From a bacterium (GTDB lineage: Bacteria; JAAXHH01): 64,000 bases of DNA. Both the position numbers and the translations under genes were made by a program. This document shows positions 20,084-40,107 of this stretch, piece after piece. Within the stretch, counting starts at the first letter, position 1; each line of letters opens with the position of its first letter. A model generated the notes under the pieces. It was not told the origin of the DNA, searched no databases, and saw only the letters and a list, made by a program, of their open reading frames with translations. The stretch is taken from the NCBI GenBank assembly GCA_965202605.1, contig OZ241838.1, positions 3,325,008 through 3,389,007 of the forward strand, in the 5' to 3' direction.

Positions 20084-23000
20084 TTACCTCCCTGGACGCC
20101 ATCCTTTACGAACAGCGTTTTCCAACTTGCCGATCTCCCTTCCTATTTCATTCAGTTTCGGGTACAACAGGTGATTGTAGGCAGCCTCTCCGCCAACAAA
20201 AACCAATCCAACCGCTGCCCCAGCCAATAATCCATATGGTCCGCCGTATGCAGATGCAACCAGGTATCCGGTCGCGGTAGATGCGCCGTACCCGGTGAAA
20301 ACGTAAGCGAATTCGCCTACACTGATTCGTCCCTTTTGCATTGCTCGGAAATCATGGAGTATACCCAAAGAAGAAGCAAGCGGACCTACCCTACCCAAGT
20401 GCCTTCTGATAGTCTCCAAGCTTCTATAGATAACCAAGGTTCTTCTACTGCCCATCAAGTCTTGAATTGTCGTGGAGTTCCTATATCTTAGCACCCCTAA
20501 TTCGACAGTAGCTATACCTGCGGACACATACTCACCACCACTACGTACAATGCGCCTTGCTGTGTTCAGGGTTTCAATGTTGAAGTAAGGCGAGCCTTGT
20601 TTTTCAACATCGAACCTGGCACCCCAGGCGCGATCAAACCACAAGTGATTGTAATGACGCTGCCCCCATACGACCACCGGATCCATCTCGTATACATCCA
20701 CCTCTCCGTCACCGTTCTTGTCCTCCCACTCGAGTCCGTATTGGTCAATGCGATTTACCGGATTACTGCCGGTATAGGCATATGCGCTGAATTCAGGATC
20801 TTTCAAGGCCAGCGGGTCTGCTTGCAGGAACCGCAGCGACTCCGATCGGTAAGTCCGAAACGGCATGAAGTCCAGTCTGGATTCTTCATCCCTCTCGTGG
20901 CCGGTGAACTTGAACGGCGTGCTGTCCGTGCCGCTCGAGGCCAGGACCTCTCCGTAGGGCCAGTAGTCGTAGGTGGCGGCAGCCGTGCCGCTTGACGAAA
21001 GCAGTGTTCTCGTGCTTCCCAGATGATCCTTAAGGTAGTAGGAAACCACCCCGCCCGCAACTCTGGCCAGGCGCTCGCCGCCGGCATACACGTAGGCGGC
21101 GGTCAGGTTGCCGGCGCCGTCATAAGTGGCGAGCACGCTGCCGCCCGCGCCCCTGACGTAGTACGTCGTCTGCCCGCCGCCGGCCTTCTTCACGCGGTAG
21201 CCCTCGGCGTCCAGGGTGTACGCGTAGGCGCCGTAGCCGGTGACCAGGCCGCGGTGGTCGTAGGCCATGGCGGTCCCCGCCACCGAGGTGGCCGATCCAT
21301 TGGCATTGTACAGGAAGTAGTCGGTACTTCCGTCTACGATGAGGCTGTCCAGCCGGTTGGGGGTTGAACCGCGCGAGTAGGAATAGGTGGCCGTGTCGCC
21401 GTCGGTCGCGACGTGCGTGATATTGCCGTTGGCGTCGTAGGCGTAGGTCCTGGCGTGGGCGCTGCCCAGGCCCATGGTCTCGAGGCGGTGCAGGCCGTCG
21501 TAGGTATAGGAGGCGGTTTTCAGGGCTTCGGACGCGGTGCGGCGGTAGCGCTGGGAAGTGACGTTGCCCACCGCGTCATACATCTGGCTCAGGGTGAACC
21601 TGCCGGGATAGCTTATCCGGCTCACCCAGTCGCGCACGTTGTATGCGTAGGCGCCGGTGGCCAGGCTGCCGCCGACCGTGTGGGTGCTCATGCGTCCGTC
21701 GCCGTCGTAGCCGTAGGCCGCCAGGGCGCTTCCCTCGGCGTCCGTCACGCCCGCCAGGCGACCCGCCGCATCGTAGGCGTAATGGACCTCGCCGCCGTCT
21801 GGATAGACCATGGCGGTCACCTTGCCGGCCAGGTCGTAGCGATAGCCTATGTCCTTGTCGGGCAGCGTATCGATGGCTACCCGCCGGAGGACGACGCGTC
21901 CTTCGTGGTCGTAGGCGATACGCGTAGCGACCTCGGCCGCGGCGTCGGCATCGGTATTCTGCTCGATCCGCGTGGGACGGCCCACGGGAAAGGTGGCCCG
22001 CACGCCCCATGCGTTCGACGCACCCGATTCGCCCGTATCATAGCTGTACCGGCTCGTCCACGAGGCCGCGTCGGTCTCGAAGGCGTAGGCCCTGTTCGGG
22101 TCGAGCGAGGCGAGGGTCCGCGTCACCTCGCCGGAGCGGACCATGCGGTTGAACCTGTCGTAGGCAAAATAGCTGACCTTGCCGCCTGCGGCCTGCTGCG
22201 CGTCCTGTGAGAAACGCACGTTGTGACGGCTATCGTACTTGTACTTCGTCGTGCCCGCGTCCGGCTGCGTTTTCGAGACCATGTCGCCGTGGGCGTCGTA
22301 GGTATACGTCGTCGCGTCGCCCATGGGCGCGGTGGACCTGACCAGTCGTCCCAGGCCGTCGTAGGCGAAGCGCGTCGTGGTTTCGTCGGTCCCGCCGGAG
22401 TCGGCTACGGCGGCCACGACCTGCCCCCACCTGTCGAAGTGGCTGGTCACGCGTCTTCCGAGCTCGTCGGTGACGGTCTCGAAGCGGTTCTCCATGCTCA
22501 CGCGGGCGAGATCGCCCTTGCCGTATACGATGCTGGAGGAGACGGTCTCTCCGGGCACCGTGACGGTCTTCGTACGCATGAGGGGATCGGCGGCGTAGGC
22601 GGTTCGGGTCGTCCGCGGCGTCACAGGCGCGGTCACGGAATCCGTCCGCGCGGTCGTTACCCCCACGGGCAGGGTCTGCGACACGGGTCTTCCCAGGCCG
22701 TTGTAGGCGGTGTGCGTCACCAGGTCGCGGCCGCCCGTATTGACGCGCTGCTGCATGGGCCTGCTGCTCGCGTCGTAGTAGGCGACGCTCTGCGTGGAGG
22801 CGCCCAGGTAGAGTCCGGCGACGTGGAAACGGCCGCCGCGGCCGCGCAGGGTGAGTTCGGGACGCCAGCCTGAGGGGAAACCGCTACGGCTCGCCCGCGC
22901 GCCCTGGCTCTTCCTGGCGGAGGCGAAGTTGTCGTACCGCATCACCGAGGCGTAGATATCGCCGCCCGCGGTGACGTCGATCTCGCAGGCGTACCACGCC

Positions 23001-23332
23001 AGGGCAGGCGCGTCGAAATCGTCCAGGCCGCTCGCCCGATGCACGCCGTCCTCGTACACCCTGAAGCGGCCTGGGCCGCTGTCGTAGCGTATCTCGAAGG
23101 ACGACTTGCTGCTGCGGGCCGTATCCCGGACCCCGAGGACGACGGGGGTGCTGTCCGCCTGCGTGGTTACGTACACGTCCGCGCGGATGCTCAGGGGCGC
23201 ACCCGATGTGGGCAGGGCATAGCTCCCGTCCGTGCCGATGCGCATGGCCTGCCGGCCGGCGTACCGCACGTCCTCGTCGACGTCGCCGGAGGTGACGGCG
23301 GGCACGCCGAGGTCGGGGTCTATGCCGGCCAC
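20084..23332 (-). CDS. Rhs/YD-repeat protein, 5'-truncated orphan copy with C-terminal variable domain
   Basis: YD repeats throughout, core-terminating DQYGLEWED motif, then about 210-aa C-terminal domain with a Gly-rich hydrophobic segment. DNA homology to the upstream full-length Rhs begins near 23385; no SpvB N-terminus. Confidence 0.75.
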   Translation of the reverse strand: MAGIDPDLGVPAVTSGDVDEDVRYAGRQAMRIGTDGSYALPTSGAPLSIRADVYVTTQADSTPVVLGVRDTARSSKSSFEIRYDSGPGRFRVYEDGVHRASGLDDFDAPALAWYACEIDVTAGGDIYASVMRYDNFASARKSQGARASRSGFPSGWRPELTLRGRGGRFHVAGLYLGASTQSVAYYDASSRPMQQRVNTGGRDLVTHTAYNGLGRPVSQTLPVGVTTARTDSVTAPVTPRTTRTAYAADPLMRTKTVTVPGETVSSSIVYGKGDLARVSMENRFETVTDELGRRVTSHFDRWGQVVAAVADSGGTDETTTRFAYDGLGRLVRSTAPMGDATTYTYDAHGDMVSKTQPDAGTTKYKYDSRHNVRFSQDAQQAAGGKVSYFAYDRFNRMVRSGEVTRTLASLDPNRAYAFETDAASWTSRYSYDTGESGASNAWGVRATFPVGRPTRIEQNTDADAAAEVATRIAYDHEGRVVLRRVAIDTLPDKDIGYRYDLAGKVTAMVYPDGGEVHYAYDAAGRLAGVTDAEGSALAAYGYDGDGRMSTHTVGGSLATGAYAYNVRDWVSRISYPGRFTLSQMYDAVGNVTSQRYRRTASEALKTASYTYDGLHRLETMGLGSAHARTYAYDANGNITHVATDGDTATYSYSRGSTPNRLDSLIVDGSTDYFLYNANGSATSVAGTAMAYDHRGLVTGYGAYAYTLDAEGYRVKKAGGGQTTYYVRGAGGSVLATYDGAGNLTAAYVYAGGERLARVAGGVVSYYLKDHLGSTRTLLSSSGTAAATYDYWPYGEVLASSGTDSTPFKFTGHERDEESRLDFMPFRTYRSESLRFLQADPLALKDPEFSAYAYTGSNPVNRIDQYGLEWEDKNGDGEVDVYEMDPVVVWGQRHYNHLWFDRAWGARFDVEKQGSPYFNIETLNTARRIVRSGGEYVSAGIATVELGVLRYRNSTTIQDLMGSRRTLVIYRSLETIRRHLGRVGPLASSLGILHDFRAMQKGRISVGEFAYVFTGYGASTATGYLVASAYGGPYGLLAGAAVGLVFVGGEAAYNHLLYPKLNEIGREIGKLENAVRKGWRPGR

Positions 23333-23648
23333 GAAGTCGGCGCCGGGCTTCAGGTGCGTGCCCGGGCCCAGGACGATGCGCCGCCACGCTGTGATCCGGC
23401 CTGCAACGTCTCAACACCTCAGACACGATACTGATCTGATCAACGGGTAAAACCGCAGGTCTTTCGTTCTACAACCATGAAAGACAGCATCAGTCGCCGG
23501 GTTATCTCGCTCCAGCCAAGGTGCATTTCGAACAGCAGTCACATATCGAGGATCCACTTTGAAGATTGCGATCTGTGGTCCATGCTTTGGGGCAAGTTCA
23601 AAAACATATCGGTTCGTTGTCCTCTGGACCGAGTCAACTCCACCCGTA

Positions 23649-24146
23649 CTATCTCCATCTGAGGGTATTGAACCCGCGTTTCTTACGTTCGGAGGGAATA
23701 CCTTCCATTCGTCCAAGTATTTGATCCATCTTGGGCATCAACAAACATGTAATGATCAGCTCACCTCCGGATCGCAGTAACAAACGAGCGTAGTAATACT
23801 CCTCCATTGAAAAAAACGTTATCCAACTTCCCTTATCTATGCTAGCGGATCTGTATACAATACAGTGCTCTATATCTTCTGCTTTGAATACCTCTTCCTG
23901 ACCGTTTGTGTATCGTATGATCTCGTTTTCGGTCACCGCATATTCCTCTCCGCGGTTCTTATGCCAGTACTGCAAATGGAGATACAGAGCTGGGAGAAAA
24001 TCTATTAGAAAAACAATACCAAATATGATAGACAAGGATGTATCGAATTCGAACCAGTAAAGTGTCGCTAAAAACAATGCAGGTAGTATAAAAGCGTGAT
24101 GGATTACTATCATGTGGTTGATTGGATTAATCCTGTACCTTTTCAT
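23649..24146 (-). CDS. Small membrane protein, candidate Rhs-toxin immunity protein (paralog of 19243..19728)
   Basis: 165 aa, two N-terminal hydrophobic helices, shared motifs (FGIVFL.DFLP.LYLHLQYW...YYYARLLLRSG) with the 19243..19728 product. Confidence 0.5.
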   Translation of the reverse strand: MKRYRINPINHMIVIHHAFILPALFLATLYWFEFDTSLSIIFGIVFLIDFLPALYLHLQYWHKNRGEEYAVTENEIIRYTNGQEEVFKAEDIEHCIVYRSASIDKGSWITFFSMEEYYYARLLLRSGGELIITCLLMPKMDQILGRMEGIPSERKKRGFNTLRWR

Positions 24147-24503: not shown

Positions 24504-25085
24504 CTACCTCCTCGAAAGCCAGCCCTTACGGACAGCATTTTCCAAGTTTCCGATCTCCCTACCTATTTGATTTAATTTAGGATACAGATTACTGTAGGCA
24601 GCTTCTCCGCCAACAAAAACCAAACCAACCGCTGCCCCAGCCAATAATCCATATGGTCCGCCGTATGCAGATGCAACCAAGTATCCTGTTGCGGCAGATG
24701 CACCGAATCCCGTAGAAATGTAAGTGAATCTGCCTACACCGATTTTACCAGTTTGCATTGCACGAAAATCAAAAGCCAAACTTAAAACAGAAGTAAAAAG
24801 GCCAACCCTGCCCAAGATCGACCTGGCAGCTCCCAAGTCTCTATACACCGCATACAGCCTGGGTGGGTTGTCTATCAAGTCATCGATCGATGAGAAATTC
24901 CCATACCTACGTACCCCGATTTCGACGGCGCTTATACCAGCGGCTCCATACTCGACTCCGCTACGTACAATGCGCCTTGCTGTGTTCAGGGTTTCAATGT
25001 TAAAGTAAGGAGATCCTTGTATTTCAACGTCGAACCTGGCACCCCATGCGCGATCGAACCACAAGTGATTGTAATGACGCTGCCC
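24504..25085 (-). CDS. Rhs C-terminal variable domain, separated from the Rhs core by an in-frame TAG
   Basis: In frame with the Rhs core at 25086..30071. The codon corresponding to TGG (Trp) in the orphan copy (VVVWGQRHYNHLWFDRAWG) is TAG here. Downstream sequence continues the homology. Confidence 0.5.
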   Translation of the reverse strand, partial: GQRHYNHLWFDRAWGARFDVEIQGSPYFNIETLNTARRIVRSGVEYGAAGISAVEIGVRRYGNFSSIDDLIDNPPRLYAVYRDLGAARSILGRVGLFTSVLSLAFDFRAMQTGKIGVGRFTYISTGFGASAATGYLVASAYGGPYGLLAGAAVGLVFVGGEAAYSNLYPKLNQIGREIGNLENAVRKGWLSRR

Positions 25086-28000
25086 CTATACGACCACGGG
25101 TTCCATCTCGTACACATCCACCTCTCCGTCCCCGTTTTGGTCCTCCCACTCGAGTCCGTACTGGTCGATGCGGTTTATCGGATTACTGCCGGTATAGGCA
25201 TATGCGCTGAATTCAGGATCTTTCAAGGCCAGCGGGTCGGCCTGCAGGAACCGCAGCGACCCCGACCGGTAAGTGCGGTACTGCATGAAGTCCAGTCCGG
25301 ACTCTTCGTCCCGCTCGTGTCCGGTGAACTTGAACGGTGCACTGTCCGTGCCGCTCGAGGCCAGGACCTCTCCGTAGGGCCAGTAGTCGTAGGTGGCGGT
25401 AGCCGTGCCGCTTGACGAAAGTAGCGTTCTCGTGCTGCCCAGATGATCCTTAAGGTAGTAGGAAACCACCTCTCCCGCAACGCTGACCAGCCTGTCGCCG
25501 CCGGCATACACGTAGGCGGCGGTCAGGTCCCCGGCGGCATCATAGGTGGCGAGCACGTTTCCGCCCGCGCCCCGGATGTAGTACACGGTGTTCCCGCCGC
25601 CGACCTTCTTCACGCGGTAGCCCTCGGCGTCCAGGGTGTACGCATAGGCGCCGTACCCGTTGACCAGGCCGCGGTGATCGTAGCTCATGGCGGTCCCCGC
25701 CACCGAGGTGGCCGAACCGTTGGCGTTGTACGAAAAACGCTCCGTCACGCTCCCCTTGGCGATGCTGTCCAGCCTGTTGGGGGTTGAACCGCGCGAGTAG
25801 GCATAGGTGGCCGTGTCGCCGTCGGTCGCGACGTGCGTGATATTGCCGTTGTCGTCGTAGGCGTAGGTCCTGGAGCGGGTGGCGCCCAGGCCCATGGTCT
25901 CGAGGCGGTGCAGGCCGTCGTAGGTATAGGAGGCGGTCTTGAGGGGTTCGGTGGCCGCGCGCCGGTAGTTCTGCGAAGTGACGTTGCCCACCGCGTCGTA
26001 GGCCTGGTCGAGCGTGAACCTGCCGGGATAGCTTATCTCACTTACCCAGTCGCGCACGTTGTATGCGTAGGCGCCGGTGGCCAGGGTACCGCCGACCGTG
26101 TGGGCGCTCATGCGTCCGTCGCTATCGTAGGCGTAGGTCGCCAGGGCGCTTCCTTCGGCGCCTGTCACGCCTGCCAGACGGCCTGCCGCATCGTAGGCGT
26201 AATGGACCTCGCTACCGTCGGGATAGACCATGGCGGTCACCTTGCCGGCCAGGTCGTAGCGATAGGCCATGTCCTTGTCGGGCAGCGTATCGATGGCTAC
26301 CCGCCGGAGGATGACGCGTCCCTCGTGGTCGTAGGCGATGCGCGTAGTGACCTCGGCCGCGGCGTCGGCGTCGGTGTTCTGCTCGATCCGCGTAGGACGG
26401 CCGACAGGCCAGGTGGCCCGCACGCCCCATGCGTTCGACGCGCCCGATGCGTCGATATCGTAGATATACCGGCTTGTCCACGAGGCCGCGTCGGTCTCAA
26501 AGGCATAGGCCCTGTTCGCGTCGAGCGACGCGAAGGTCCGCGTCACCTCGCCGGAGCGGACCATGCGGCCAAACTTGTCATAGGTAAAGTAGCTGACCTT
26601 GCGGCCTGCGGCCTGCTGCGCGTCCTGGGAGAAGCGCACGTTGTGACGGCTATCGTACTTGTACTTCGTAGTTCCCGCGTCCGGCTGCGTCTTCGAGACC
26701 ATGTCGCCGTGGGCGTCGTAGGTATACGTCGTCACGTCGCCCATGGGCGCGGTTGACCTGATCAGCCGTCCCAGGCCGTCGTAGGCGAAGCGGGTGGTGG
26801 TCTCGTCGGTCCCGCCGGAGTCGGCGACGGCGGCGACGACCTGCCCCCACCTGTCGAAGTGGCTGGTCACGCTCTTGCCCAGTTCGTCGGTGACGGTCTC
26901 GTAGCGGTTCTCCACGCTCACGCGGGTGAGATCGCCCTTGCCGTATACGATGTTGGAGGAGACGCTCTCTCCCGGCGCCGTGACGGTCTTCGTGCGCATG
27001 AGGGGATCGGCGGCGTAGGTTGTCCGGGTCGTCCGCGGCGTCACAGGCGCAGATACGGCGTCCGTCCGCGCGGTGGATACGCCCACGGGCAGGGTCTGCG
27101 ACACGGACCTTCCCATGCCATTGTAGGTGGTGTGCGTCACCAGGTCGCGGCCCCCGGTGACGACGCGCCGTTGCATGGGCCTGCTGCTGGCGTCGTAGTA
27201 GGCGACGCTCTGCGTGGAGGACCCCAGGTAGAGTCCGGCGACGTGGAACCGTCCGCCGCTGCCGCGCAGGGTGAGCTCGGGACGCCAGCCTGAGGGGAAC
27301 CCGCTGCGGCTCGCCCGCGCGCCCTGGCTCTTCCGGCCTGAGGCGAAGTTGTCGTACCGCATCACCGAGGCGTAGATATCGCCGCTCGCGGTGATGTCGA
27401 TCTCGCAGGCGTACCACGCCAGGCTCGGCGCGTCGAAATCGTCCAGGCCGCTCGCCTGGCGCACGCCGTCCTCGTAGACCCTGAAGCGGTCCGCGCCCGC
27501 GTCGTAGCGTATCTCGAAGGACGCGTTGCTGCTGCGGGCCGTATCGCGGACCCCGAGGACGACGGGCGTGCTGCCGGTCTGCGTCGATAGGTACACGTCG
27601 GCGCGGATGCTCAAGGGCGCGCCGGTAGTGGGCAGGCTATAGGTTCCGTCCGTGCCGATGCGCATGGCCTGCCGGCCGTCGAGCCGCACGTCCTCGTCGA
27701 CATCGCCCGCAGTGACGGCGGGCACGCCGAGGTCGGGGTCCACCCCGGCTGTGAATTCGGCGCCGGGCTTCAGGTGCGTGCCCGGGCCCAGTACGATGCG
27801 CTCCCTGGCACGGAGCGTCACGGCGGCGCCGGGCTCGGCCGTCAGGCCGGCATTAAAATCGATGGCGTCCGCCTCGTAGCGCATCTCCTCTCCGTCGCTC
27901 ACCGTCACCTGCGCGTCGAAGTCCAGCAGGGGAATAAGCCGTTCATGCAGCGGATACCCTTGCGGGTCGACGTAGGCCGCCGAGGCGATCCGGTTGGGGT

Positions 28001-30071
28001 CCGTTTTCGCATAGGTGCCGTCGTTCTCGTGGCGGGACCACGCGGTGAGCCGCCGCGCGGTGATCCGGCCCATGCCGTCCTCGGAGAGGAAGGCCGAGCC
28101 GAGAGGATCCCTGAAATAGCGCCTTGCGACGCCGTTGGCGTCCTGCATGGCGGTGACGGCCAGGTTCGCTGGGTCGTACGTGACAAGCGAGGTGGGCAGG
28201 GCCGACGCGGGATATACGCGCACGTTGTCGATGAACAGGCGGCCGCTGGCAACATCGTTGCGGAAGAGGACCCGGTCGGGCATAGAGGCGGACGTCAGGT
28301 CGTAGTAGCCGGTCTTCGGATAGCGGACGCCGTCGACCCGGGCGAACCAGCGCCGCGCGGATGAGTTGGTGGTGTCCCACTCCAGGCGGACGTGGTGCCA
28401 GCGGTTGACGCGGTAGGCGGTGTGGAGCGCTTCAGGCGTCCGGCTTCCGTTGTCGTGAACGCCGAAGGTGCCGTCGGCCTTCAGATCGAACCCCAAAACC
28501 GTTCTCGCGCCCGACGACAGGGTAACGGCGGAGTGGTCCGCGTTGCTGTCCAGCATCACGTCGCATTCGAACACGCCTGCCCCGAGCGCCGGGACGGTAA
28601 GCCTGAGCGCCTGATCGTTCGCGCTGCCGAGTGCCCTCAGCACGCCGTCTTCAAGCGCTACGCGGGCCGGACTAGCGGACGACCAGTCCGGGGTGGCCAG
28701 GAGCGCCGCGGCGTCCTCGTAGTCGTCGAAGACGTAGGCTCGGACCTGCGACGACCTCGTGTTGGCGAAGGCGGCCACTGGCGCGAGTCTGTCGTAGCCC
28801 CATACGGAGGTTTCCACGGTCCCTGCCGCGTCCTTTATCTCGATGGGCTGTCCCTCCGGCGTGAAACTCAGGACTTCCTGTTCCAGACGCCTGCCGGACG
28901 GCGTGCCGCCGTAGGTTTTCTGCACCTTAAAATTCGTGCCGTAGTCGAATTCTGCATGATCCAGGATGCCGCCGCCGTGGTCTTTGACCGTGACTGCCGC
29001 CGGCTTGTCCCAGATACGCCGGGCGTCGGTCATGATCTCGTACTCCGGGTCGGAAGCGGCATCGGGTAGGAGGATGACCTCGATATCCCTGGCGTAGCCC
29101 TGAACGTGCCACCTGGCCGCCCCGTCCATCGGCTTCGGGGTGAGTGCGCTGATCGTCACTTCGAGCAACGCCCTGGGCGACACGCCGGCGGCGTGTCGCG
29201 GCACGGCGATTTCCTCGTCGAAGGCTAACTCGCCGTTCGCAACCTGGCCGGAGAAACCACCGACGTACGTGGATCTGCCGTTCAGTCCCGGCCAGATGAG
29301 CCTGACCGCCACCGAGCCTGAGGGTCCGCCCGTACCCGTTGCGGGACCCAGCACATCGCGAAGGCCCGTCTTGCCCCGGACCCTGACGTAAGGGTCGGCA
29401 ACGTCGAACGCCGTGGAGCGGAAGCGGACGCTGAGCGTACTCTCCTTGACGACGGCCGGGGTTGCCGTGGCCTCGGCCCAGAGTTCCTGAAGGCCCGTGA
29501 GGTTCCCGGACCAGTCGTAGACGCCCGTGGAATCGGAGGCGGCTACGCTGTCCCAGGCATAGTCCGCCTTCGCGTTCTCCACGCTGGTGATCTCGGCGTA
29601 GGTCCGTATGCCCGTCGGCGCCGCGCTCGGATCGGCGGAACTGTGCAGCGTCACCCGCATGTAGCCCGAGCGCACGCGGTCGGGCACGACGAGGGTGGTA
29701 TCCACGGTCATCCGGACCGTCGCCGTCGGCGCGGTGAAGATCTCGTCCGCGATGATCGAGACGGGCGAAGAAGGCGCGTCCCACACGATCTCGACCTTTG
29801 CTGTGCCGTACAGGTCCGTACCGGTGCCGGACACCTTGTCGAGCCCGACCGTACCCACGATCTCGAGTCTCGGACTGGTGAGCCGGAACCTGTCGCTCTC
29901 GTACACCGCGGTTACCAGGTTCTCCTTGTTGTCGTTCTGCCCGTTCGCCCGGGTCCACACCCGGCTTCTGCCGGTCGCGGACCGGTTGTAATCGAAGTCG
30001 CCCCTGGGTGTCTCCCAGGGACGGCGGGTCGTCTGACCAGTCGTACGGCTGGTCCTGGCTGTCGGCGCCAC
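25086..30071 (-). CDS. Rhs/YD-repeat protein core
   Basis: 1661-aa ORF rich in YD repeats. C-terminal about 1080 aa nearly collinear with the orphan copy at 20084..23332. Upstream SpvB-like segment is in a different frame; ends with stop at 25086-25088. Confidence 0.8.
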   Translation of the reverse strand: MAPTARTSRTTGQTTRRPWETPRGDFDYNRSATGRSRVWTRANGQNDNKENLVTAVYESDRFRLTSPRLEIVGTVGLDKVSGTGTDLYGTAKVEIVWDAPSSPVSIIADEIFTAPTATVRMTVDTTLVVPDRVRSGYMRVTLHSSADPSAAPTGIRTYAEITSVENAKADYAWDSVAASDSTGVYDWSGNLTGLQELWAEATATPAVVKESTLSVRFRSTAFDVADPYVRVRGKTGLRDVLGPATGTGGPSGSVAVRLIWPGLNGRSTYVGGFSGQVANGELAFDEEIAVPRHAAGVSPRALLEVTISALTPKPMDGAARWHVQGYARDIEVILLPDAASDPEYEIMTDARRIWDKPAAVTVKDHGGGILDHAEFDYGTNFKVQKTYGGTPSGRRLEQEVLSFTPEGQPIEIKDAAGTVETSVWGYDRLAPVAAFANTRSSQVRAYVFDDYEDAAALLATPDWSSASPARVALEDGVLRALGSANDQALRLTVPALGAGVFECDVMLDSNADHSAVTLSSGARTVLGFDLKADGTFGVHDNGSRTPEALHTAYRVNRWHHVRLEWDTTNSSARRWFARVDGVRYPKTGYYDLTSASMPDRVLFRNDVASGRLFIDNVRVYPASALPTSLVTYDPANLAVTAMQDANGVARRYFRDPLGSAFLSEDGMGRITARRLTAWSRHENDGTYAKTDPNRIASAAYVDPQGYPLHERLIPLLDFDAQVTVSDGEEMRYEADAIDFNAGLTAEPGAAVTLRARERIVLGPGTHLKPGAEFTAGVDPDLGVPAVTAGDVDEDVRLDGRQAMRIGTDGTYSLPTTGAPLSIRADVYLSTQTGSTPVVLGVRDTARSSNASFEIRYDAGADRFRVYEDGVRQASGLDDFDAPSLAWYACEIDITASGDIYASVMRYDNFASGRKSQGARASRSGFPSGWRPELTLRGSGGRFHVAGLYLGSSTQSVAYYDASSRPMQRRVVTGGRDLVTHTTYNGMGRSVSQTLPVGVSTARTDAVSAPVTPRTTRTTYAADPLMRTKTVTAPGESVSSNIVYGKGDLTRVSVENRYETVTDELGKSVTSHFDRWGQVVAAVADSGGTDETTTRFAYDGLGRLIRSTAPMGDVTTYTYDAHGDMVSKTQPDAGTTKYKYDSRHNVRFSQDAQQAAGRKVSYFTYDKFGRMVRSGEVTRTFASLDANRAYAFETDAASWTSRYIYDIDASGASNAWGVRATWPVGRPTRIEQNTDADAAAEVTTRIAYDHEGRVILRRVAIDTLPDKDMAYRYDLAGKVTAMVYPDGSEVHYAYDAAGRLAGVTGAEGSALATYAYDSDGRMSAHTVGGTLATGAYAYNVRDWVSEISYPGRFTLDQAYDAVGNVTSQNYRRAATEPLKTASYTYDGLHRLETMGLGATRSRTYAYDDNGNITHVATDGDTATYAYSRGSTPNRLDSIAKGSVTERFSYNANGSATSVAGTAMSYDHRGLVNGYGAYAYTLDAEGYRVKKVGGGNTVYYIRGAGGNVLATYDAAGDLTAAYVYAGGDRLVSVAGEVVSYYLKDHLGSTRTLLSSSGTATATYDYWPYGEVLASSGTDSAPFKFTGHERDEESGLDFMQYRTYRSGSLRFLQADPLALKDPEFSAYAYTGSNPINRIDQYGLEWEDQNGDGEVDVYEMEPVVV

Positions 30072-32232
30072 CGAGCGGAAGCGGATAGAAGGTCTCGGTG
30101 GTTCGATAGCCCGGGATCTCCTCCCGTTCCACCAGGCCGTTTATCGGGTTGTAGCGGTACCTCGTGGTGGCGGTTACGCCGTCCGTGGTCTCGGACGTCT
30201 CGGTCCGCCGCACCCGGAAGCTCTGTTTTTTGGCGCCGCCGTGATAGATCATGTTGTTGAAGTGGCCCGACGTATCTACCGCCCAGGTGTTTTCCAGCCT
30301 GCCCACCTCCCCGCCGGTTGCCGTGTATCGGATCTCCTCCTCGAGCAGCCCGCGCCACATGCGCCGCTGCGCCTTGCCCAGGTCGCTCGTGGCGGGCGCC
30401 AGGCCAAGCCGGTCCACGTCCGCCTCGCTCACGAACTCCCGCCGGATCCTGCCGTAGGACGTGCCGTCCCGGTCCACGATGCGCTCCTCCACCCAGGGAT
30501 ACGTCACGGCTTCGACTGGACCGCTTCCGAACCGCCAGAGGTCGGCTGTATCCGGGTAGACGTACCAGGTGGACGCGGCCGGCGTTCCGGCGTCGCCGTC
30601 GTCGTCCACGTCGCGCCGGGAGACGCGGTACGCGTATTCGTCGTACTTCTTCGCGAGGTGGGACGAATCGGGCCGCGCGTGCGCCGACGTGGTAGCCCGT
30701 TCATAGGTAATGGCCATGGTCCGGCCCGTGGGGTACTTTACGCTGGTAAGGCGGTACTTGTACGACGGGGCGTAGTCGAAGTCATAGGAAGGCAGAGGCG
30801 CCCTGCCCTTCCCCTTTACCGTCACCGAAGAAAGCAGCAGAAGGTTCTGCCGCTGATGTTGTTCGAGAGAATCGGACACGGCATAGGGTTCAGGTTTCAG
30901 ACGGTTTGGTTCGAAAGCAAAGTCGATCGTCGTGATGGTCCGTCCGGCGCCGTCCTCGACCGTTATGCTTCTCAGCCGCCTCGTGGTTTCGATGCCGTCC
31001 AGCGACCGGAACAGGAAGGGGTGGTAGAGTTCCTGCGGGGACCGGTAGAGATTCCCGTTGGGCATGGCGGCGATCATCTCCTGCGCGGTGGGAATCCGGA
31101 CCTGCCCTATGGTCGAGTCCGCCACGACCGAGTTGGTGGCGAAGTCGTAATAGTTATTCCCGTTGGAAAACGAATTGCCGGCGAGCGGCAGGTCCTCCGA
31201 TCGCTCCGTCGCGGCAAAAGTCACCCGGCTCACCAGGTCTCCGGCGGGGTTGTGAAAACGGACCTCCGCCAGATGCGACGTCTGGGAGGTCTTGACCACC
31301 GTATACTCGGTGCTGGCTGATCCGATGCGCGGGTCCAGGTCGCCTGCGCTTATCCTGTTCGGGAAGCTGTTGAAGACCTGGCTTCTCTCCTGGTTGGTGC
31401 GCACGGTGGTCACCGGCTTGTCCGCCTCGTATCGGAAGTAGACGGTATTGCCCTGCGGATCCCTGATGGAGGCGAGATTCCACTGGTATACGAAGCTCCT
31501 GTTCAGCCAGCCGGAGACGATGACGGTCTCTCCCCGCAAGTCTGTTTCGGAGCCGAACGCCATGGCTTCCGTGGTGAGGTTGGCCCCGTATCCGTCAGCG
31601 GGGCCGAAGGTATAGACGTTTCCCGACAGGTCTGTCGCGGTCCAGGTCGATGTCAGCGAATCCTCATTCGCCCACCTGATGTCCCAGAACTGCCGGCGCT
31701 CGACGAAGAACCGGTTGGTGAGCGATGCGTTAGTTCCGCCCGATTCCTTCTGACGGATGAGCGGGTGGTACCCGCCGGGCAGCACCAGGGCCATGTCGTA
31801 CTCGTTAGGGTTGTTGGTGATCCACTCGCCCTGGCCCGGCTCCGTCGTATTGTAGCCGCCGATGACCTTGACCGCTCCCACGGTGAGGTTCCAACCCAGG
31901 CCCGCCCATGAAGGCTGGTTGAGCGTGTAGGTGGCTTTGCCGTCCGCGACGTTCCCCCGCAGGAGCCGGTCCGGCCCCGCGATGCCGCTGCTGTATTCGA
32001 GGGCCAGCGGCCAGGACAGGTCTCCGGAACCGGCCACCGTGGCCAGCGGCAGCGAGAAGGACCAGTCGCCGGTGAAGTAGTCCACCCGGTCCGCCTCCAG
32101 GGTGCTTTGAAGGTGCTCGAAATCATAGGCCCCGTGGGTCAGCTGCCCGGTCGCCGCCTGTCCGGAGGCGGAAAGGACGCCGATCATCAGCGCCAGGGCG
32201 GCAAGCAGCCGTATGGCAAACGGGCCAGTCAT
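30000..32232 (-). CDS. SpvB-like N-terminal region of the Rhs protein, with Sec-type signal peptide; frameshifted relative to the Rhs core
   Basis: ORF 28927..32451 is meaningful from the ATG at 32232 (MTGPFAIRLLAALALMIGVLSASGQA) to about 30000 (...DWSDDPPSLGDTQG), with SpvB-like LALEYSS and GLGWNL motifs. Beyond that it becomes Arg-rich out-of-frame read-through of the Rhs core. Confidence 0.6.
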
Positions 32233-33002
32233 GCTGAAATTCTTACTTGCCGGTGATATTGGCGATGTGTTTTGAATTGCTTCCGCCGCATTATGGTCCC
32301 GGTACGGGAACGATGCGCGGACGCAAGGCGCCGCCCCTCCCCTCCGGTCCTTGCCGCGGCCGGATGTGCGTGATTGTGATGCGTCGTGCGATGTAGGGTG
32401 TGTGCGGACGTGCATGGCTCCCCTGCCTTTCTGTTCGATCAGAAGTAGCACGGGGACGCTCGAGGTCCGCGGGGTGCGGGTCCGCTAAGGGACGCGAGGG
32501 TATTCTGATGCGGTGGTAATGCTCTCGCTCAGGCGGCACGCGTGAGCGAAATGACAATACGAAGATTACAACATTACGATACTATGATATTGCGTTCCTA
32601 CCGATTTACCGGACTGAACCCTCCTTTCGTGAGCGATCCGAATCGTGAGCGATCTGAAACGGATCACGCGTCCATGTTACGTGCGTGACCGCACACAACG
32701 ATATACTATACGTATGTTTAGTTAATGTGTCAAGAGCAAAAATGAAAAAACGCCTTTCAGGACGAAAAGCCCGTTCCGTATCCCGCGCTTACCGGATGGT
32801 ATGGATGCCACAAAGGGGATTGCGCAAGTTCCGACGCGGAATTAGATTTGACAGGAACTCCGAAGTCCCGGGGATCGTATGAATATCGTCGGTGCGCGAC
32901 TGACGCGGATGTCGGTCGAACCGCTGAATCCGATCGTTGTTTTCGTGATCCCCTCTACGAATTCAGCCGTCCGGTACGAAGAGTGGTGCGAGGATCCGCC
33001 CC

Positions 33003-37725: not shown

Positions 37726-40107
37726 ATGACCTCGTTCCGCTTCCTTCTGCTTTTCAGTATCATCATGACGTCTGCGGACGTTGTTGAAGCCCAGGACCAG
37801 CCATCCATCCGCGCCCAGGATGCGCCTTCGACACAGACGCAAATCATACGCCCGGTCCGCGTCGAGATCCCGCTTTTCGAAGGCGGGCAGGGGCTGGAGT
37901 TCTTCCTCGAGTGCGCCCGGACCTATGAACAGGAGCACAAGGGCGTAGTGATCGACCTTTACGGCGATCCCCGCATCCACGACAAGGTGCGGGTGCGCAT
38001 CCTTGAACGGTCCTTCCCCGAGGTCACCAACGCCAGCCTCAACTACTGGGCGCTCATCCGCAACGGCGACCTGCTGCCCCTGGACGAGTTCCTCGACCAG
38101 CCCAACTGGGAGGGCGACCGTACCTGGCGCGAATCGTTCCTGCCCGGAACCCTGTCCCGCTACACCCACGAGGGCAACACCTACGGCGTCCCCCTGATGG
38201 CCTCTGCCTACGCCGTGTGGTACAACAAGAACCTCTTTGAAGAGCACGGCTGGCAACCGGCCACGACCTGGGAGGAGTTCTTTGCACTATGTGAAGAGAT
38301 CAAGGCCGCCGGCATGTGGCCGCTCGCCTTCCAGGGCCGGTATCCGGGCTACGTGCAGGCCGTGATCGACCACGCGTACTATCACCTCGCCGGTCCGCGT
38401 CGCTACTTCGACCAGAAGAACCTGGTGCCCGGCAGTTTCGACAATCCCGAGTTCGCCGAGTCCCTTTCCATTGCGCAACAGATCGCGTTGAACTACTTCC
38501 AGCCTGGCGCCATGGGCATGAGCCATACCGAATCGCAGCTCGAGTTCTTCCTGGGGCACACGGCCATGATCTTCTGCGGTTCGTGGCTCAAGAGCGAGAT
38601 GCTGGGCAAGATACCGGACGGCTTCCGGCTCGGGTCCTTCAACCTGCCGGTGGCGCCCACGGGCAAGGCGGATCCATCGGCCGTCTACGGCGGGTCCGGG
38701 TACTATTTCGTCCTGAAGGACAGCGACCATCCCCGGGAAGGCGTCGAGTTCCTGCGGTTCATGACTTCCCGCCGCATGGCCGGTCTTTTCGCGCGGATGC
38801 GCGACATCCCCGTGTCCGTGGCCGGCGTATCCGAAGAGCACCTAACGGAAGACATGGCCGACCTGGCGGCCATGCTGAGGGACGCGGCCGTCACCTACGG
38901 CACGCCGCCCGGGGAGGGCTATCCGGCCATGACCCAGTACTGGACCGATGCGCGATTCAGGGTGATCACGGGACAGACCACGCCCGCGGAGGCCGCCGCG
39001 GAACTGGAAGCCAACGCGGCCGTGGTACGGCGGCAGTCCCTGGCGCCGGACGAGATCAACATCCGGCACGTATGGAAGCCGGCCCTGCTGATCGGCCTCA
39101 TGGCCCTGGCCGTGGTCTACTGGTCGGCCACCACCTACAAACGCTACCGGGATCGGCGCCGCGCGGGAATCAATACGACGGAGGCCCGGCCCTTCCTGCG
39201 CCGGACCGACCGGATCATCCTCATCGCGCCGGCCCTGGTGCTGTACACGGTGTTCGTGATCATCCCGAGCGCGAAGTCGTTCCTCTGGAGCCTGAACGAA
39301 TGGGACGGGCTGACCGACATGCGGTTCACGGGCCTGCTCAACTTCGGCCGCCTGCTCTTCGAAAGCGACGGATTCTGGATCGCGCTGAACAACAACCTGT
39401 TCATCATGTTCGTCATCCCCCTGTTCGTCATCCCGCTCTCCCTCTTCCTGGCCGTCTGCATCAGCCGCGAGATCTGGGGTTCGCGGTTCTTCCGCATCGC
39501 CTTCTTCTTCCCCAACATACTCGGAGCCGTCGCCGCCACGCTGCTCTGGATGCACCTCTACAACCCCCAGGGCGGGCCGATCAACACCGCGCTGGTGGGA
39601 CTCGGGGTGATCCTGTCCGCGGCAGGCCTCGAAAGCGCAGGAAGCTGGCTGCAGGCCATGGAAGGATTCGCGTGGCTGTCGCAGTCCAACCTGTACTGGG
39701 CACTCATCCCCATGTCCATCTGGGGCGCCTGCGGCTTCAACATGATCCTATTTCTGGCTGCCATGGAGAGCATCCCCCAGAGTCTCTACGAAGCGGCGGA
39801 TATCGACGGCGCCTCGTCGTGGCGGCAATTCTGGACCATCACCCTGCCGCTGATCTGGGAGGTGCTGTCCATCTCCATCGTGTTCATGGTCATCGGCGGT
39901 ATGAAGGCCTTCGAGACCATCTGGCTGCTCACCAACCAGACGCCCACCACGCAGGTGCACGTCATCGGCACGCTCATGGTGCAGGACATGTTCACCGAGT
40001 TCAAGATCGGCGAGGCCACGGCCATCGCGGTGCTGCTGTTCATCATGGTCTTCTTCGGCACAGCCGCCACGCTCAGGGCCATGCGAAGGGAAACGGTGGA
40101 ATTCTGA
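37726..40107 (+). CDS. ABC transporter: fused periplasmic solute-binding domain and permease (MalF-like) domain
   Basis: Single 793-aa ORF. N-terminal signal peptide plus family-1 solute-binding-like region; C-terminal multi-TM permease with EAA motif (EAADIDGAS). Confidence 0.7.
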   Translation: MTSFRFLLLFSIIMTSADVVEAQDQPSIRAQDAPSTQTQIIRPVRVEIPLFEGGQGLEFFLECARTYEQEHKGVVIDLYGDPRIHDKVRVRILERSFPEVTNASLNYWALIRNGDLLPLDEFLDQPNWEGDRTWRESFLPGTLSRYTHEGNTYGVPLMASAYAVWYNKNLFEEHGWQPATTWEEFFALCEEIKAAGMWPLAFQGRYPGYVQAVIDHAYYHLAGPRRYFDQKNLVPGSFDNPEFAESLSIAQQIALNYFQPGAMGMSHTESQLEFFLGHTAMIFCGSWLKSEMLGKIPDGFRLGSFNLPVAPTGKADPSAVYGGSGYYFVLKDSDHPREGVEFLRFMTSRRMAGLFARMRDIPVSVAGVSEEHLTEDMADLAAMLRDAAVTYGTPPGEGYPAMTQYWTDARFRVITGQTTPAEAAAELEANAAVVRRQSLAPDEINIRHVWKPALLIGLMALAVVYWSATTYKRYRDRRRAGINTTEARPFLRRTDRIILIAPALVLYTVFVIIPSAKSFLWSLNEWDGLTDMRFTGLLNFGRLLFESDGFWIALNNNLFIMFVIPLFVIPLSLFLAVCISREIWGSRFFRIAFFFPNILGAVAATLLWMHLYNPQGGPINTALVGLGVILSAAGLESAGSWLQAMEGFAWLSQSNLYWALIPMSIWGACGFNMILFLAAMESIPQSLYEAADIDGASSWRQFWTITLPLIWEVLSISIVFMVIGGMKAFETIWLLTNQTPTTQVHVIGTLMVQDMFTEFKIGEATAIAVLLFIMVFFGTAATLRAMRRETVEF

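Follow-up and report, generated by a model that had tools for sequence, protein, structure and literature searches.

The rhs locus and its C-terminal toxin family

The window, the whole 64-kb stretch of DNA analysed here, comes from a Candidatus Latescibacterota-like genome and contains a locus with the classic layout of Rhs polymorphic toxins. On the minus strand, the main rhs gene is followed by an immunity gene, a 5′-truncated orphan copy of the rhs C-terminal (CT) part, and a second immunity gene. This layout matches described systems of main and orphan rhs genes (PMC3967940, PMC3150448). The main full-length rhs gene (24504..32232, minus strand) was delimited by Pfam and NCBIfam domains and by comparison with intact orthologues, and is disrupted as written. 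It opens at ATG 32232 with a signal-peptide-like N-terminus (MTGPFAIRLLAALALMIGVLSASGQA). A sigma-70-like promoter match (TTGACA-17-TATAGT, 11/12; 32705..32733, minus strand), which is a consensus match only, lies about 470 nt 5′ of this ATG. The first 743 codons (30004..32232, minus strand) form an N-terminal segment in the native frame and include a weak SpvB-like region, for which the Pfam match is marginal (22.4 bits against a cut-off of 22). In the same frame, they are succeeded by an out-of-frame tail of 358 Arg/Gly-rich nonsense codons and a stop (28927..30003, minus strand).

The middle region and the Rhs/YD-repeat shell are encoded in a second frame (25089..30002, minus strand), as recognized by ORF translation and domain searches. 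Pfam matches in the main gene comprise RHS_repeat (PF05593, E=1.7e-34) and DUF6443, and those from NCBIfam comprise YD_repeat_2x (TIGR01643, 67.6 bits), a partial RHS_core (NF041261), and Rhs_assc_core. The last of these, the Rhs-associated core domain TIGR03696 (25152..25385, minus strand; 65.1 bits against a cut-off of 32.5), covers residues 1541-1618 of the 1639-aa second-frame translation. It ends in NPINRIDQYGL, a variant of the PxxxxDPxGL motif with Q replacing P, and past this NRIDQYGL core end the orthologues diverge completely. The remaining C-terminal toxin region (24507..25085, minus strand) consists of 193 open codons, with the conserved toxin domain at approximately 24507-25001.

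The orphan rhs copy (20084..23381, minus strand) is a 5′-truncated duplicate of main-gene positions 24505-27801, with 88% nucleotide identity. Its homology begins mid-gene at 23381, corresponding to 27801 in the main gene, and runs through to the stop codon; the ORF itself spans 20084..23332. The orphan, which follows the main gene and shares its strand, lacks an N-terminal delivery region. The sequence upstream of it is low in GC and non-coding, and a scan for sigma-70-like sites returned no promoter match 5′ of it. The initial annotation considered that the C-terminus of the orphan may be intact, which it is, and the copy possesses its own immunity gene as well.

The putative immunity gene 1 (23649..24146, minus strand) encodes 165 aa with two N-terminal hydrophobic helices and is low in GC, and the putative immunity gene 2 (19243..19728, minus strand), downstream of the orphan, encodes 161 aa. 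The two proteins share 62% identity. The 165-aa protein is also about 70% identical, by eye, to a 165-aa protein of a related genome (L007), which has Pfam PH_40 on record and comes after the same toxin type. A conserved membrane protein of 161-165 aa is found downstream of this CT in three loci, and we regard this two-helix protein as the candidate immunity protein for the CT.

The CT domain itself has no significant match in Pfam, NCBIfam or PDB, and a PDB profile search was empty at E<=1. A word-indexed search for homologues of the orphan CT gave no matches, and the CT family was recovered by an exhaustive phmmer search. It comprises about 100 clusters at 50% identity and shares the conserved end …NFENAxKNGWYPGR. 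In the matched proteins the family is always C-terminal; the long ones that were scanned are Rhs proteins, and other carriers combine SpvB, FG-GAP, and RHS. The CT of the main gene is 75% identical to the intact CT P0001, and the main and orphan CTs are likewise 75% identical to each other. Judged by sequence, this is a previously unannotated family of Rhs C-terminal toxins. An invariant hydrophobic stretch of the pattern G-x3-G-x3-G-x3-G (GGPYGLLAGAAVGLVFVGGE) suggests that the toxin is probably membrane-active and of glycine-zipper type. Pfam profiles match only weakly, with Bacteriocin_IIc in 5/21 family members (best E = 8e-4) and similarly weak glycine-zipper matches, and this similarity may be one of composition only. 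An AlphaFold model of the CT, built from a 21-sequence alignment, is all-helical, with a mean pLDDT of 55.9 and a pTM of 0.37, a quality too poor for a fold search. The CT family and its two-helix membrane partner form a pair open to experimental characterisation.

Two single-base interruptions of the main gene

The frameshift is located at 30001..30004 (minus strand), where the window has GGGG and the relatives have GGG. In a DNA alignment with L001, L002, L003, and L005, the window reads CAGGGGCGAC against CAGGGCGAC in all of them, a difference of one extra G. Translated from ATG 32232, the frame gives a sensible protein through codon CAG 30006-30004 and then nonsense, until the stop at 28927-28929. 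The second frame (ORF 25086..30071) begins with about 22 nonsense codons and makes sense from approximately 30002. A GC3 phase plot at 300-nt resolution places a phase change in the same interval, and L005 and L007 are continuous across the site (LGDTQGDFDYN and LGDIQGDSDYE, respectively). The single-base indel near 30.0 kb proposed in the initial annotation is therefore this additional G. The interval given for it, 30000-30070, contains the lesion and is too wide, as 30071 merely marks the opening of the second ORF.

Removal of one G restores an ORF of 2575 codons plus stop, in agreement with the earlier estimate of about 2570, and its sole internal stop is the TAG at 25086..25088 (minus strand). 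This premature in-frame codon differs by a single G-to-A change from the Trp codon that is retained in the orphan (TGG 20666-20668) and in the two closest homologues, P0001 and P0002. The main gene reads GTC GTA TAG GGG CAG against GTC GTA TGG GGG CAG in the orphan. Past the TAG, the frame stays open for 193 codons, up to the TAG at 24504-24506; from base composition, we estimate the chance of such a run at about 47% GC to be approximately 4e-5. Homology to the orphan, P0001, and P0002 likewise persists in frame to the end of the gene. The alignment bears out the earlier observation of TGG opposite the TAG with in-frame homology downstream. The stop had also been placed exactly at the core/CT junction, which is incorrect: it lies 21 codons past the core end (L of NRIDQYGL, 25152), within the CT linker and upstream of the conserved toxin domain. 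As written, no uninterrupted ORF joins delivery region, shell, and toxin (+1 G at 30001-30004; TAG at 25086-25088), and on the evidence of its reading frames the main gene belongs to the Rhs family by ancestry and is non-functional in this form.

The comparison with orthologous loci, which the initial annotation had suggested, places five relatives in frame at the shift site. Four of them (L001, L002, L003, L007) have intact single orthologous ORFs of 2608-2638 codons, and the fifth (L005), a short contig that stops about 350 nt beyond the site, stays in frame across it. The ancestral state is one uninterrupted gene, and both lesions are derived single-base changes. Against the relatives, dN/dS amounts to 0.27-0.34 upstream of the frameshift and 0.29-0.32 downstream of it; for the CT codons past the TAG, compared with the orphan, it is 0.26. 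No further stops occur in the 1639 + 193 codons of the main gene. Since these dN/dS values reveal no relaxed selection, the lesions are either recent or artefactual. The related genomes are metagenome-assembled, and both the type of CT and the orphan count differ widely among their Rhs loci. A metagenome scan with a chimeric query spanning both lesion sites yielded 114 pattern matches, 0 of them confirmed.

In the remaining ~56 kb of the window, no other disruption was detected by a GC3 phase scan and a scan for in-frame stops with high-GC3 coding sequence on either side. The cases flagged by these scans, leuC/leuD and two overlapping ABC permease genes, are all normal. A TAG at 13621, considered as a second in-frame TAG because both of its flanks are coding, is the normal stop of leuC, followed by leuD in frame. 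The overlapping same-strand ORFs at 37726/38316, 8771/9193, and 50267/51704, considered as frameshifts, proved to be either ordinary neighbouring genes or spurious ORFs of high GC. Reassignment of TAG was rejected as well, as this codon ends 9/31 of the ORFs tallied in the window; seven of these ORFs, leuC included, lie outside the Rhs gene, and the other two TAGs are those of the Rhs gene itself. The neighbouring genes that were checked are metabolic or regulatory.

Origin of the interruptions

The interruptions themselves are of an ordinary kind, belonging either to a young pseudogene or to a consensus error. Our preferred reading, which we consider probable, is recent pseudogenisation of the main rhs gene. 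By analogy with the Rhs family, the intact gene would encode a secreted protein of about 2575 aa, made up of a signal peptide, a weak SpvB-like region, an extended middle part, and the shell of YD repeats. The core ending in NRIDQYGL would be followed by a linker of about 50 aa and a glycine-zipper C-terminal toxin of about 165 aa. We postulate that this gene was hit twice, very recently and independently, by the gain of one G in the G3 run at 30001-30004 and by the change of TGG to TAG at 25086-25088. Translation from ATG 32232 as written would then produce 743 native and 358 nonsense residues, comprising neither shell nor toxin; with both unmade, the main gene would thus be a young pseudogene. 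Several lesions are commonly accumulated by pseudogenes. Both immunity genes and the toxin end of the orphan remain intact. Orphan and main gene offer a recombination substrate of 3.3 kb at 88% identity, through which the TAG-bearing end could be replaced, as in Salmonella, with the frameshift out of reach. Of the three readings put forward in the initial annotation, a pseudogene accompanied by an intact orphan is the one we favour; a functional stop and a repeat-induced misassembly of the frameshift are not upheld.

Alternatively, one or both lesions could be consensus or assembly errors, so that the true gene is intact, with 2575 codons, and encodes a functional Rhs toxin with an orphan module. 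We regard this, the main rival to our reading, as possible and on balance unlikely. With one G removed, the frame aligns to the five relatives without a gap. Both lesions are situated at G-homopolymers (GGG to GGGG; TGGGGG to TAGGGG), a context typical of long-read consensus errors, and the relatives are metagenome-assembled genomes, in which single-base consensus errors occur. There is no other decay, as dN/dS is equal on either side of the frameshift and the 193 codons past the TAG are open, a picture exactly as expected of an undamaged gene carrying two errors. The match of the main CT to P0001 is to an intact sequence. However, the remaining ~56 kb, free of frameshifts and in-frame stops, point to a low error rate, and two errors in one gene are improbable: for random errors in the same 7.7-kb gene of the 64-kb window, the prior is about 1-2%, and the probability of the second given the first is 12%. 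A substitution error that creates a stop is rarer still. Few random substitutions yield stop codons, which is why we infer that a nonsense error is improbable a priori in an otherwise clean assembly. The repeat is an unlikely source of the frameshift through misassembly, as 2.2 kb separate the site from the duplicated segment (24505-27801), and mis-mapped orphan reads would give TGG at the second site, not TAG. These considerations argue for lesions that are biological and not consensus errors. For annotation, the ORFs 28927..32451, 25086..30071, and 24504..25064 are to be treated as one disrupted rhs gene, not as three genes or as a split toxin system.

Much less probable is that the interruptions are functional, with the CT made separately from TTG 25064 in a TA-like manner, or with the lesions bypassed by +1 frameshifting or readthrough. 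This TTG is the only nearby in-frame start, located 7 codons 3′ of the TAG and still ahead of the entire conserved toxin domain. The CT frame downstream of the TAG is open throughout, the cognate immunity gene is intact, and in Salmonella, Rhs CTs are expressed from internal promoters and a non-ATG start (PMC7043789). Against this, the intact orphan shares the TTG and its upstream context at the same position, over the stretch read, so that nothing specific to a start has evolved in the main gene. No promoter-like site was found on the minus strand at 25064-25400 in a scan for sigma-70-like sites, a class that does not cover the promoter types of the phylum, and we saw no evidence of a ribosome-binding site or internal promoter for separate CT expression. 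Every relative keeps its frame across the shift site, and Trp is present in all three homologous CTs (orphan, P0001, P0002); a programmed recoding signal would need conservation. The use of TAG as a regular terminator in the window speaks against readthrough by reassignment, and a short G4 run that lacks both a stop downstream and any recognised slippery motif is, to our knowledge, no +1 frameshift signal. The suggestion in the initial annotation that the stop has a function is therefore unsupported.

We attach equally little weight to the reading that the lesions are real but unfixed, with a metagenome consensus mixing strains and the broken alleles present in part of the population; it is compatible with the metagenomic origin of the related sequences and with the strong variation of their Rhs loci, and the sequence itself argues neither way. 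Most doubtful of all is that the lesions are tolerated or selected and the toxin is translated at a low level from TTG 25064 and kept in check by the membrane immunity protein encoded next to it; if true, the Salmonella idea of Rhs as a type II TA module would reach an uncultured phylum and a membrane-active toxin, and an internally expressed toxin/immunity pair, acting in addiction or growth control, would have replaced a delivered weapon.

Comparison with known systems

Loci combining a main rhs gene with orphan rhs-CT/immunity modules are known in Enterobacteria, namely Salmonella Typhimurium, E. coli, Dickeya, and Serratia (PMC3967940, PMC3150448, PMC10539506). A literature search on Rhs in Latescibacteria found nothing relevant, and the present locus extends the main-plus-orphan layout, with its low-GC toxin/immunity cassettes, to Candidatus Latescibacterota-like genomes. 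It shares with the enterobacterial loci the YD repeats, a core end of DPxGL type, a variable CT, and, immediately after it, a small immunity gene. Furthermore, both have a 5′-truncated orphan in the same orientation that retains part of the core and its own CT and immunity gene, and in both the GC content of the CT/immunity modules is far below that of the remaining genome. In contrast to the PAAR/VgrG-linked T6SS delivery of the enterobacterial proteins, the main gene here begins with a putative Sec-type signal peptide and the weak SpvB-like region, and no T6SS genes were found among the neighbours checked. The main and orphan CTs here are of the same toxin type, unlike the unrelated CTs of enterobacterial loci. 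The boundary reads DQYGL instead of DPxGL, and a frameshift plus a nonsense codon interrupt the main gene.

The cocoon of TcB/TcC (ABC toxin complex) resembles the main gene in its marginal SpvB N-terminus, Rhs/YD shell, and C-terminal toxic domain. Here, however, SpvB is matched only at threshold, an FG-GAP propeller is undetected, and no TcA-like partner lies beside the gene among the neighbours checked. With membrane-active glycine-zipper toxins and class II bacteriocins (Bacteriocin_IIc, Glycine zipper 2TM), the CT shares the G-x3-G-x3-G-x3-G stretch and gives the weak matches noted above. Finally, as in the internally expressed Rhs-CT modules of Salmonella (PMC7043789), a possible non-ATG in-frame start precedes the CT and an immunity gene follows it; unlike in those modules, the stop in the main gene is derived, having arisen by mutation of a conserved Trp.

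Two interruptions in the main rhs gene

The main rhs gene (24504..32232, reverse strand) is tiled by three reverse-strand reading frames: ORF 1 (28927..32451), ORF 2 (25086..30071) and ORF 3 (24504..25064), which shares the frame of ORF 2. Read from ATG 32232, ORF 1 has a signal-peptide-like start and encodes a sensible protein as far as …PPSLGDTQ, followed by 358 Arg/Gly-rich nonsense codons. ORF 2 opens with about 22 nonsense codons and thereafter reads GDFDYNRSATGRSRVWTRANGQNDNKE…, encoding a long YD-repeat protein that breaks off after …YEMEPVVV at a TAG (25086-25088). ORF 3 carries on beyond this stop, in frame, as GQRHYNHLWFD… for 193 codons, bearing out the in-frame downstream continuation given in the initial annotation. 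In a GC3 phase plot, the phase switches without a gap between about 30000 and 30150. This switch and the three-ORF reading establish both interruptions as real features of the sequence. Domain matches in the main gene (Pfam and NCBIfam) comprise a marginal SpvB, RHS repeats, DUF6443, RHS_core and Rhs_assc_core. About 470 nt 5' of the rhs ATG, at 32705-32733 (reverse strand), is a near-consensus match to a sigma-70-like promoter (TTGACA-17-TATAGT), which would imply a long leader if used.

A scan at one genome per species returned six related loci, the named ones being Candidatus Latescibacterota metagenome-assembled genomes. Three of them (L001, L002 and L003) each carry a single intact rhs ORF of 2608-2638 codons, while L007, found via a homologue of the toxin end, holds an intact 2633-aa gene with about 85% nucleotide identity to the window. 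L005 (about 90% nucleotide identical) reads uninterrupted through the frameshift site as …SLGDTQGDFDYNRSATG…. The frameshift, previously assigned to 30000-30070, is narrowed by DNA alignment to the G-run 30001-30004, which holds one G too many: the window has CAGGGGCGAC, and four relatives (L001, L002, L003 and L005) have CAGGGCGA, with C or T as the next base. Deleting one G yields 2575 codons, in keeping with the anticipated length of about 2570, with the TAG at codon 2382 as the sole internal stop. Compared to window 32514-29653, L005 (2228-5076) is about 90% identical in nucleotides across the N-terminal region, whereas its protein is 98% identical over the 117 codons immediately past the frameshift site. 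This contrast suggests mosaic similarity (recombination) inside the gene. The contig carrying L005 extends only about 350 nt beyond the site.

The segment 24505-27801 of the main gene recurs, 5'-truncated, at 20085-23381 with 88% nucleotide identity, forming the downstream orphan copy (ORF 20084..23332, reverse strand). At the TAG site, the main copy reads GTC GTA TAG GGG CAG and the orphan GTC GTA TGG GGG CAG, so the Trp reported for the orphan holds. An exhaustive phmmer search with the C-terminal toxin region (CT) found two close homologues, P0001 and P0002, which share 64-65% identity with the orphan and both have Trp at this position (…EMEPVVVWGQRHYNHLWFD…). The Trp shared by the orphan and both homologues marks TAG as the derived state, a G-to-A nonsense change of a conserved residue. 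TIGR03696 (Rhs-associated core) stops at the L of NPINRIDQYGL, position 25152, and orthologues diverge completely past this motif. The TAG is thus not exactly at the core/CT junction, as first described, but 21 codons downstream. The broadly conserved toxin domain begins only about 30 codons past the TAG, which therefore falls within a lineage-specific linker. The two interruptions are confirmed, each with a corrected position.

Origin of the lesions

We consider the main rhs gene to be probably a real, recent pseudogene. A consensus error at one or both lesion sites is rather unlikely, though G-homopolymers adjoin both lesions and other signs of decay are absent. No further stops occur, and dN/dS against relatives is alike downstream (0.29-0.32) and upstream (0.27-0.34) of the frameshift; for CT codons past the TAG it is 0.26 against the orphan. 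Hence the lesions must be artefacts or, if real, of very recent origin. Against error, the remaining 56 kb or so of the window yielded no further disruption, either by GC3 phase or in a search for in-frame stops with high-GC3 coding sequence on both sides; the cases flagged as suspicious proved to be normal genes. Two random errors within one 7.7-kb gene are unlikely, and a stop-creating substitution error is even rarer. Furthermore, the frameshift lies 2.2 kb beyond the duplicated segment, and orphan reads cross-mapped to the main gene would be expected to yield TGG, not TAG. A metagenome scan with a chimeric query covering both lesion sites gave 114 pattern matches, none of which was confirmed.

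Elsewhere in the window, a TAG at 13621-13623 (forward strand) is the stop codon of a leuC-like gene (Aconitase), with a leuD-like gene (Aconitase_C) next in the same frame; it was rejected as an in-frame stop, the two being a normal gene pair. At 37726-40107 (forward strand), one 793-aa ORF combines SBP_bac_1 (residues 66-350) with BPD_transp_1 (residues 569-776). Solute-binding protein and ABC permease domains are usually encoded by different genes. As this ORF keeps one GC3 phase throughout, the two domains were joined by in-frame fusion or by loss of a stop codon.

Functional interruptions, whether recoding (programmed frameshifting or readthrough) or the separate CT expression raised earlier, are jointly very improbable: shift site and stop are both unconserved in relatives, and TAG ends 9 of the 31 ORFs tallied in the window (both Rhs TAGs counted) and is therefore not reassigned. 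In Salmonella, separate expression of Rhs toxins has been described, driven by internal promoters and starting at CTG (PMC7043789), but the sole candidate start here is TTG at 25064, near which no promoter-like site was found and around which the intact orphan is identical over the stretch read. As a whole, a main rhs gene disrupted, or mis-sequenced, within a typical main/orphan locus is an ordinary finding.

Toxin domain and candidate immunity proteins

The C-terminal toxin domain (24507-25001 and 20087-20581, reverse strand) represents a family (P0001-P0102) that falls into about 100 clusters when grouped at 50% identity, with no match in Pfam, NCBIfam or PDB. It occupies the protein's C-terminal end in every match. 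Four of the long members scanned (P0015, P0021, P0029 and P0082) are Rhs proteins; SpvB, FG-GAP and RHS occur together in two of them, and DUF6443 with RHS in one. The family is marked by an invariant glycine-zipper hydrophobic stretch and an …NFENAxKNGWYPGR end, and 5 of 21 members give weak Bacteriocin_IIc matches. We infer that the toxin is membrane-active; its AlphaFold model was too poor for use. The main copy ends in …KGWLSRR (24507-24527) and the orphan in …KGWRPGR (20087-20107; both reverse strand), compared to the family consensus GWYPGR. The nearly invariant Pro is thus replaced in the main copy, which may be an extra sign of decay or mere allelic divergence.

Each toxin is followed by a candidate immunity protein with two N-terminal hydrophobic helices, of 165 aa after the main copy (23649-24146) and 161 aa after the orphan (19243-19728; both reverse strand), 62% identical to each other. 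In L007, a 165-aa protein (12255-12752) that follows the same toxin type is about 70% identical by eye and has Pfam PH_40 on record. Conserved 3' of this toxin type in three loci, these 161-165-aa proteins are likely membrane immunity proteins. GC content is 43-46% in the toxin/immunity cassettes and about 65% in the remainder of the window. As a modest by-product, the lesion analysis has brought out this toxin/immunity family, which lacks annotation.

Locus layout and known Rhs systems

In L007 (ENA ERZ24894576 ctg49580l, 870-21938), the intact main gene precedes at least 3-4 orphan rhs-CT/immunity modules, accompanied by an internal middle-region fragment (12890-13501) and an IS110-family transposase. 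There, the toxin type of the window belongs to an orphan instead of the main gene. L003, too, has a main gene and an orphan with related CTs. The main-plus-orphan Rhs architecture is known in Enterobacteria (PMC3967940, PMC3150448) and is shared by the window locus. Unlike in the enterobacterial loci, the main and orphan toxins of the window are of one type (75% identical), and delivery appears to proceed via a signal peptide rather than a T6SS, since the neighbouring genes are metabolic or regulatory.
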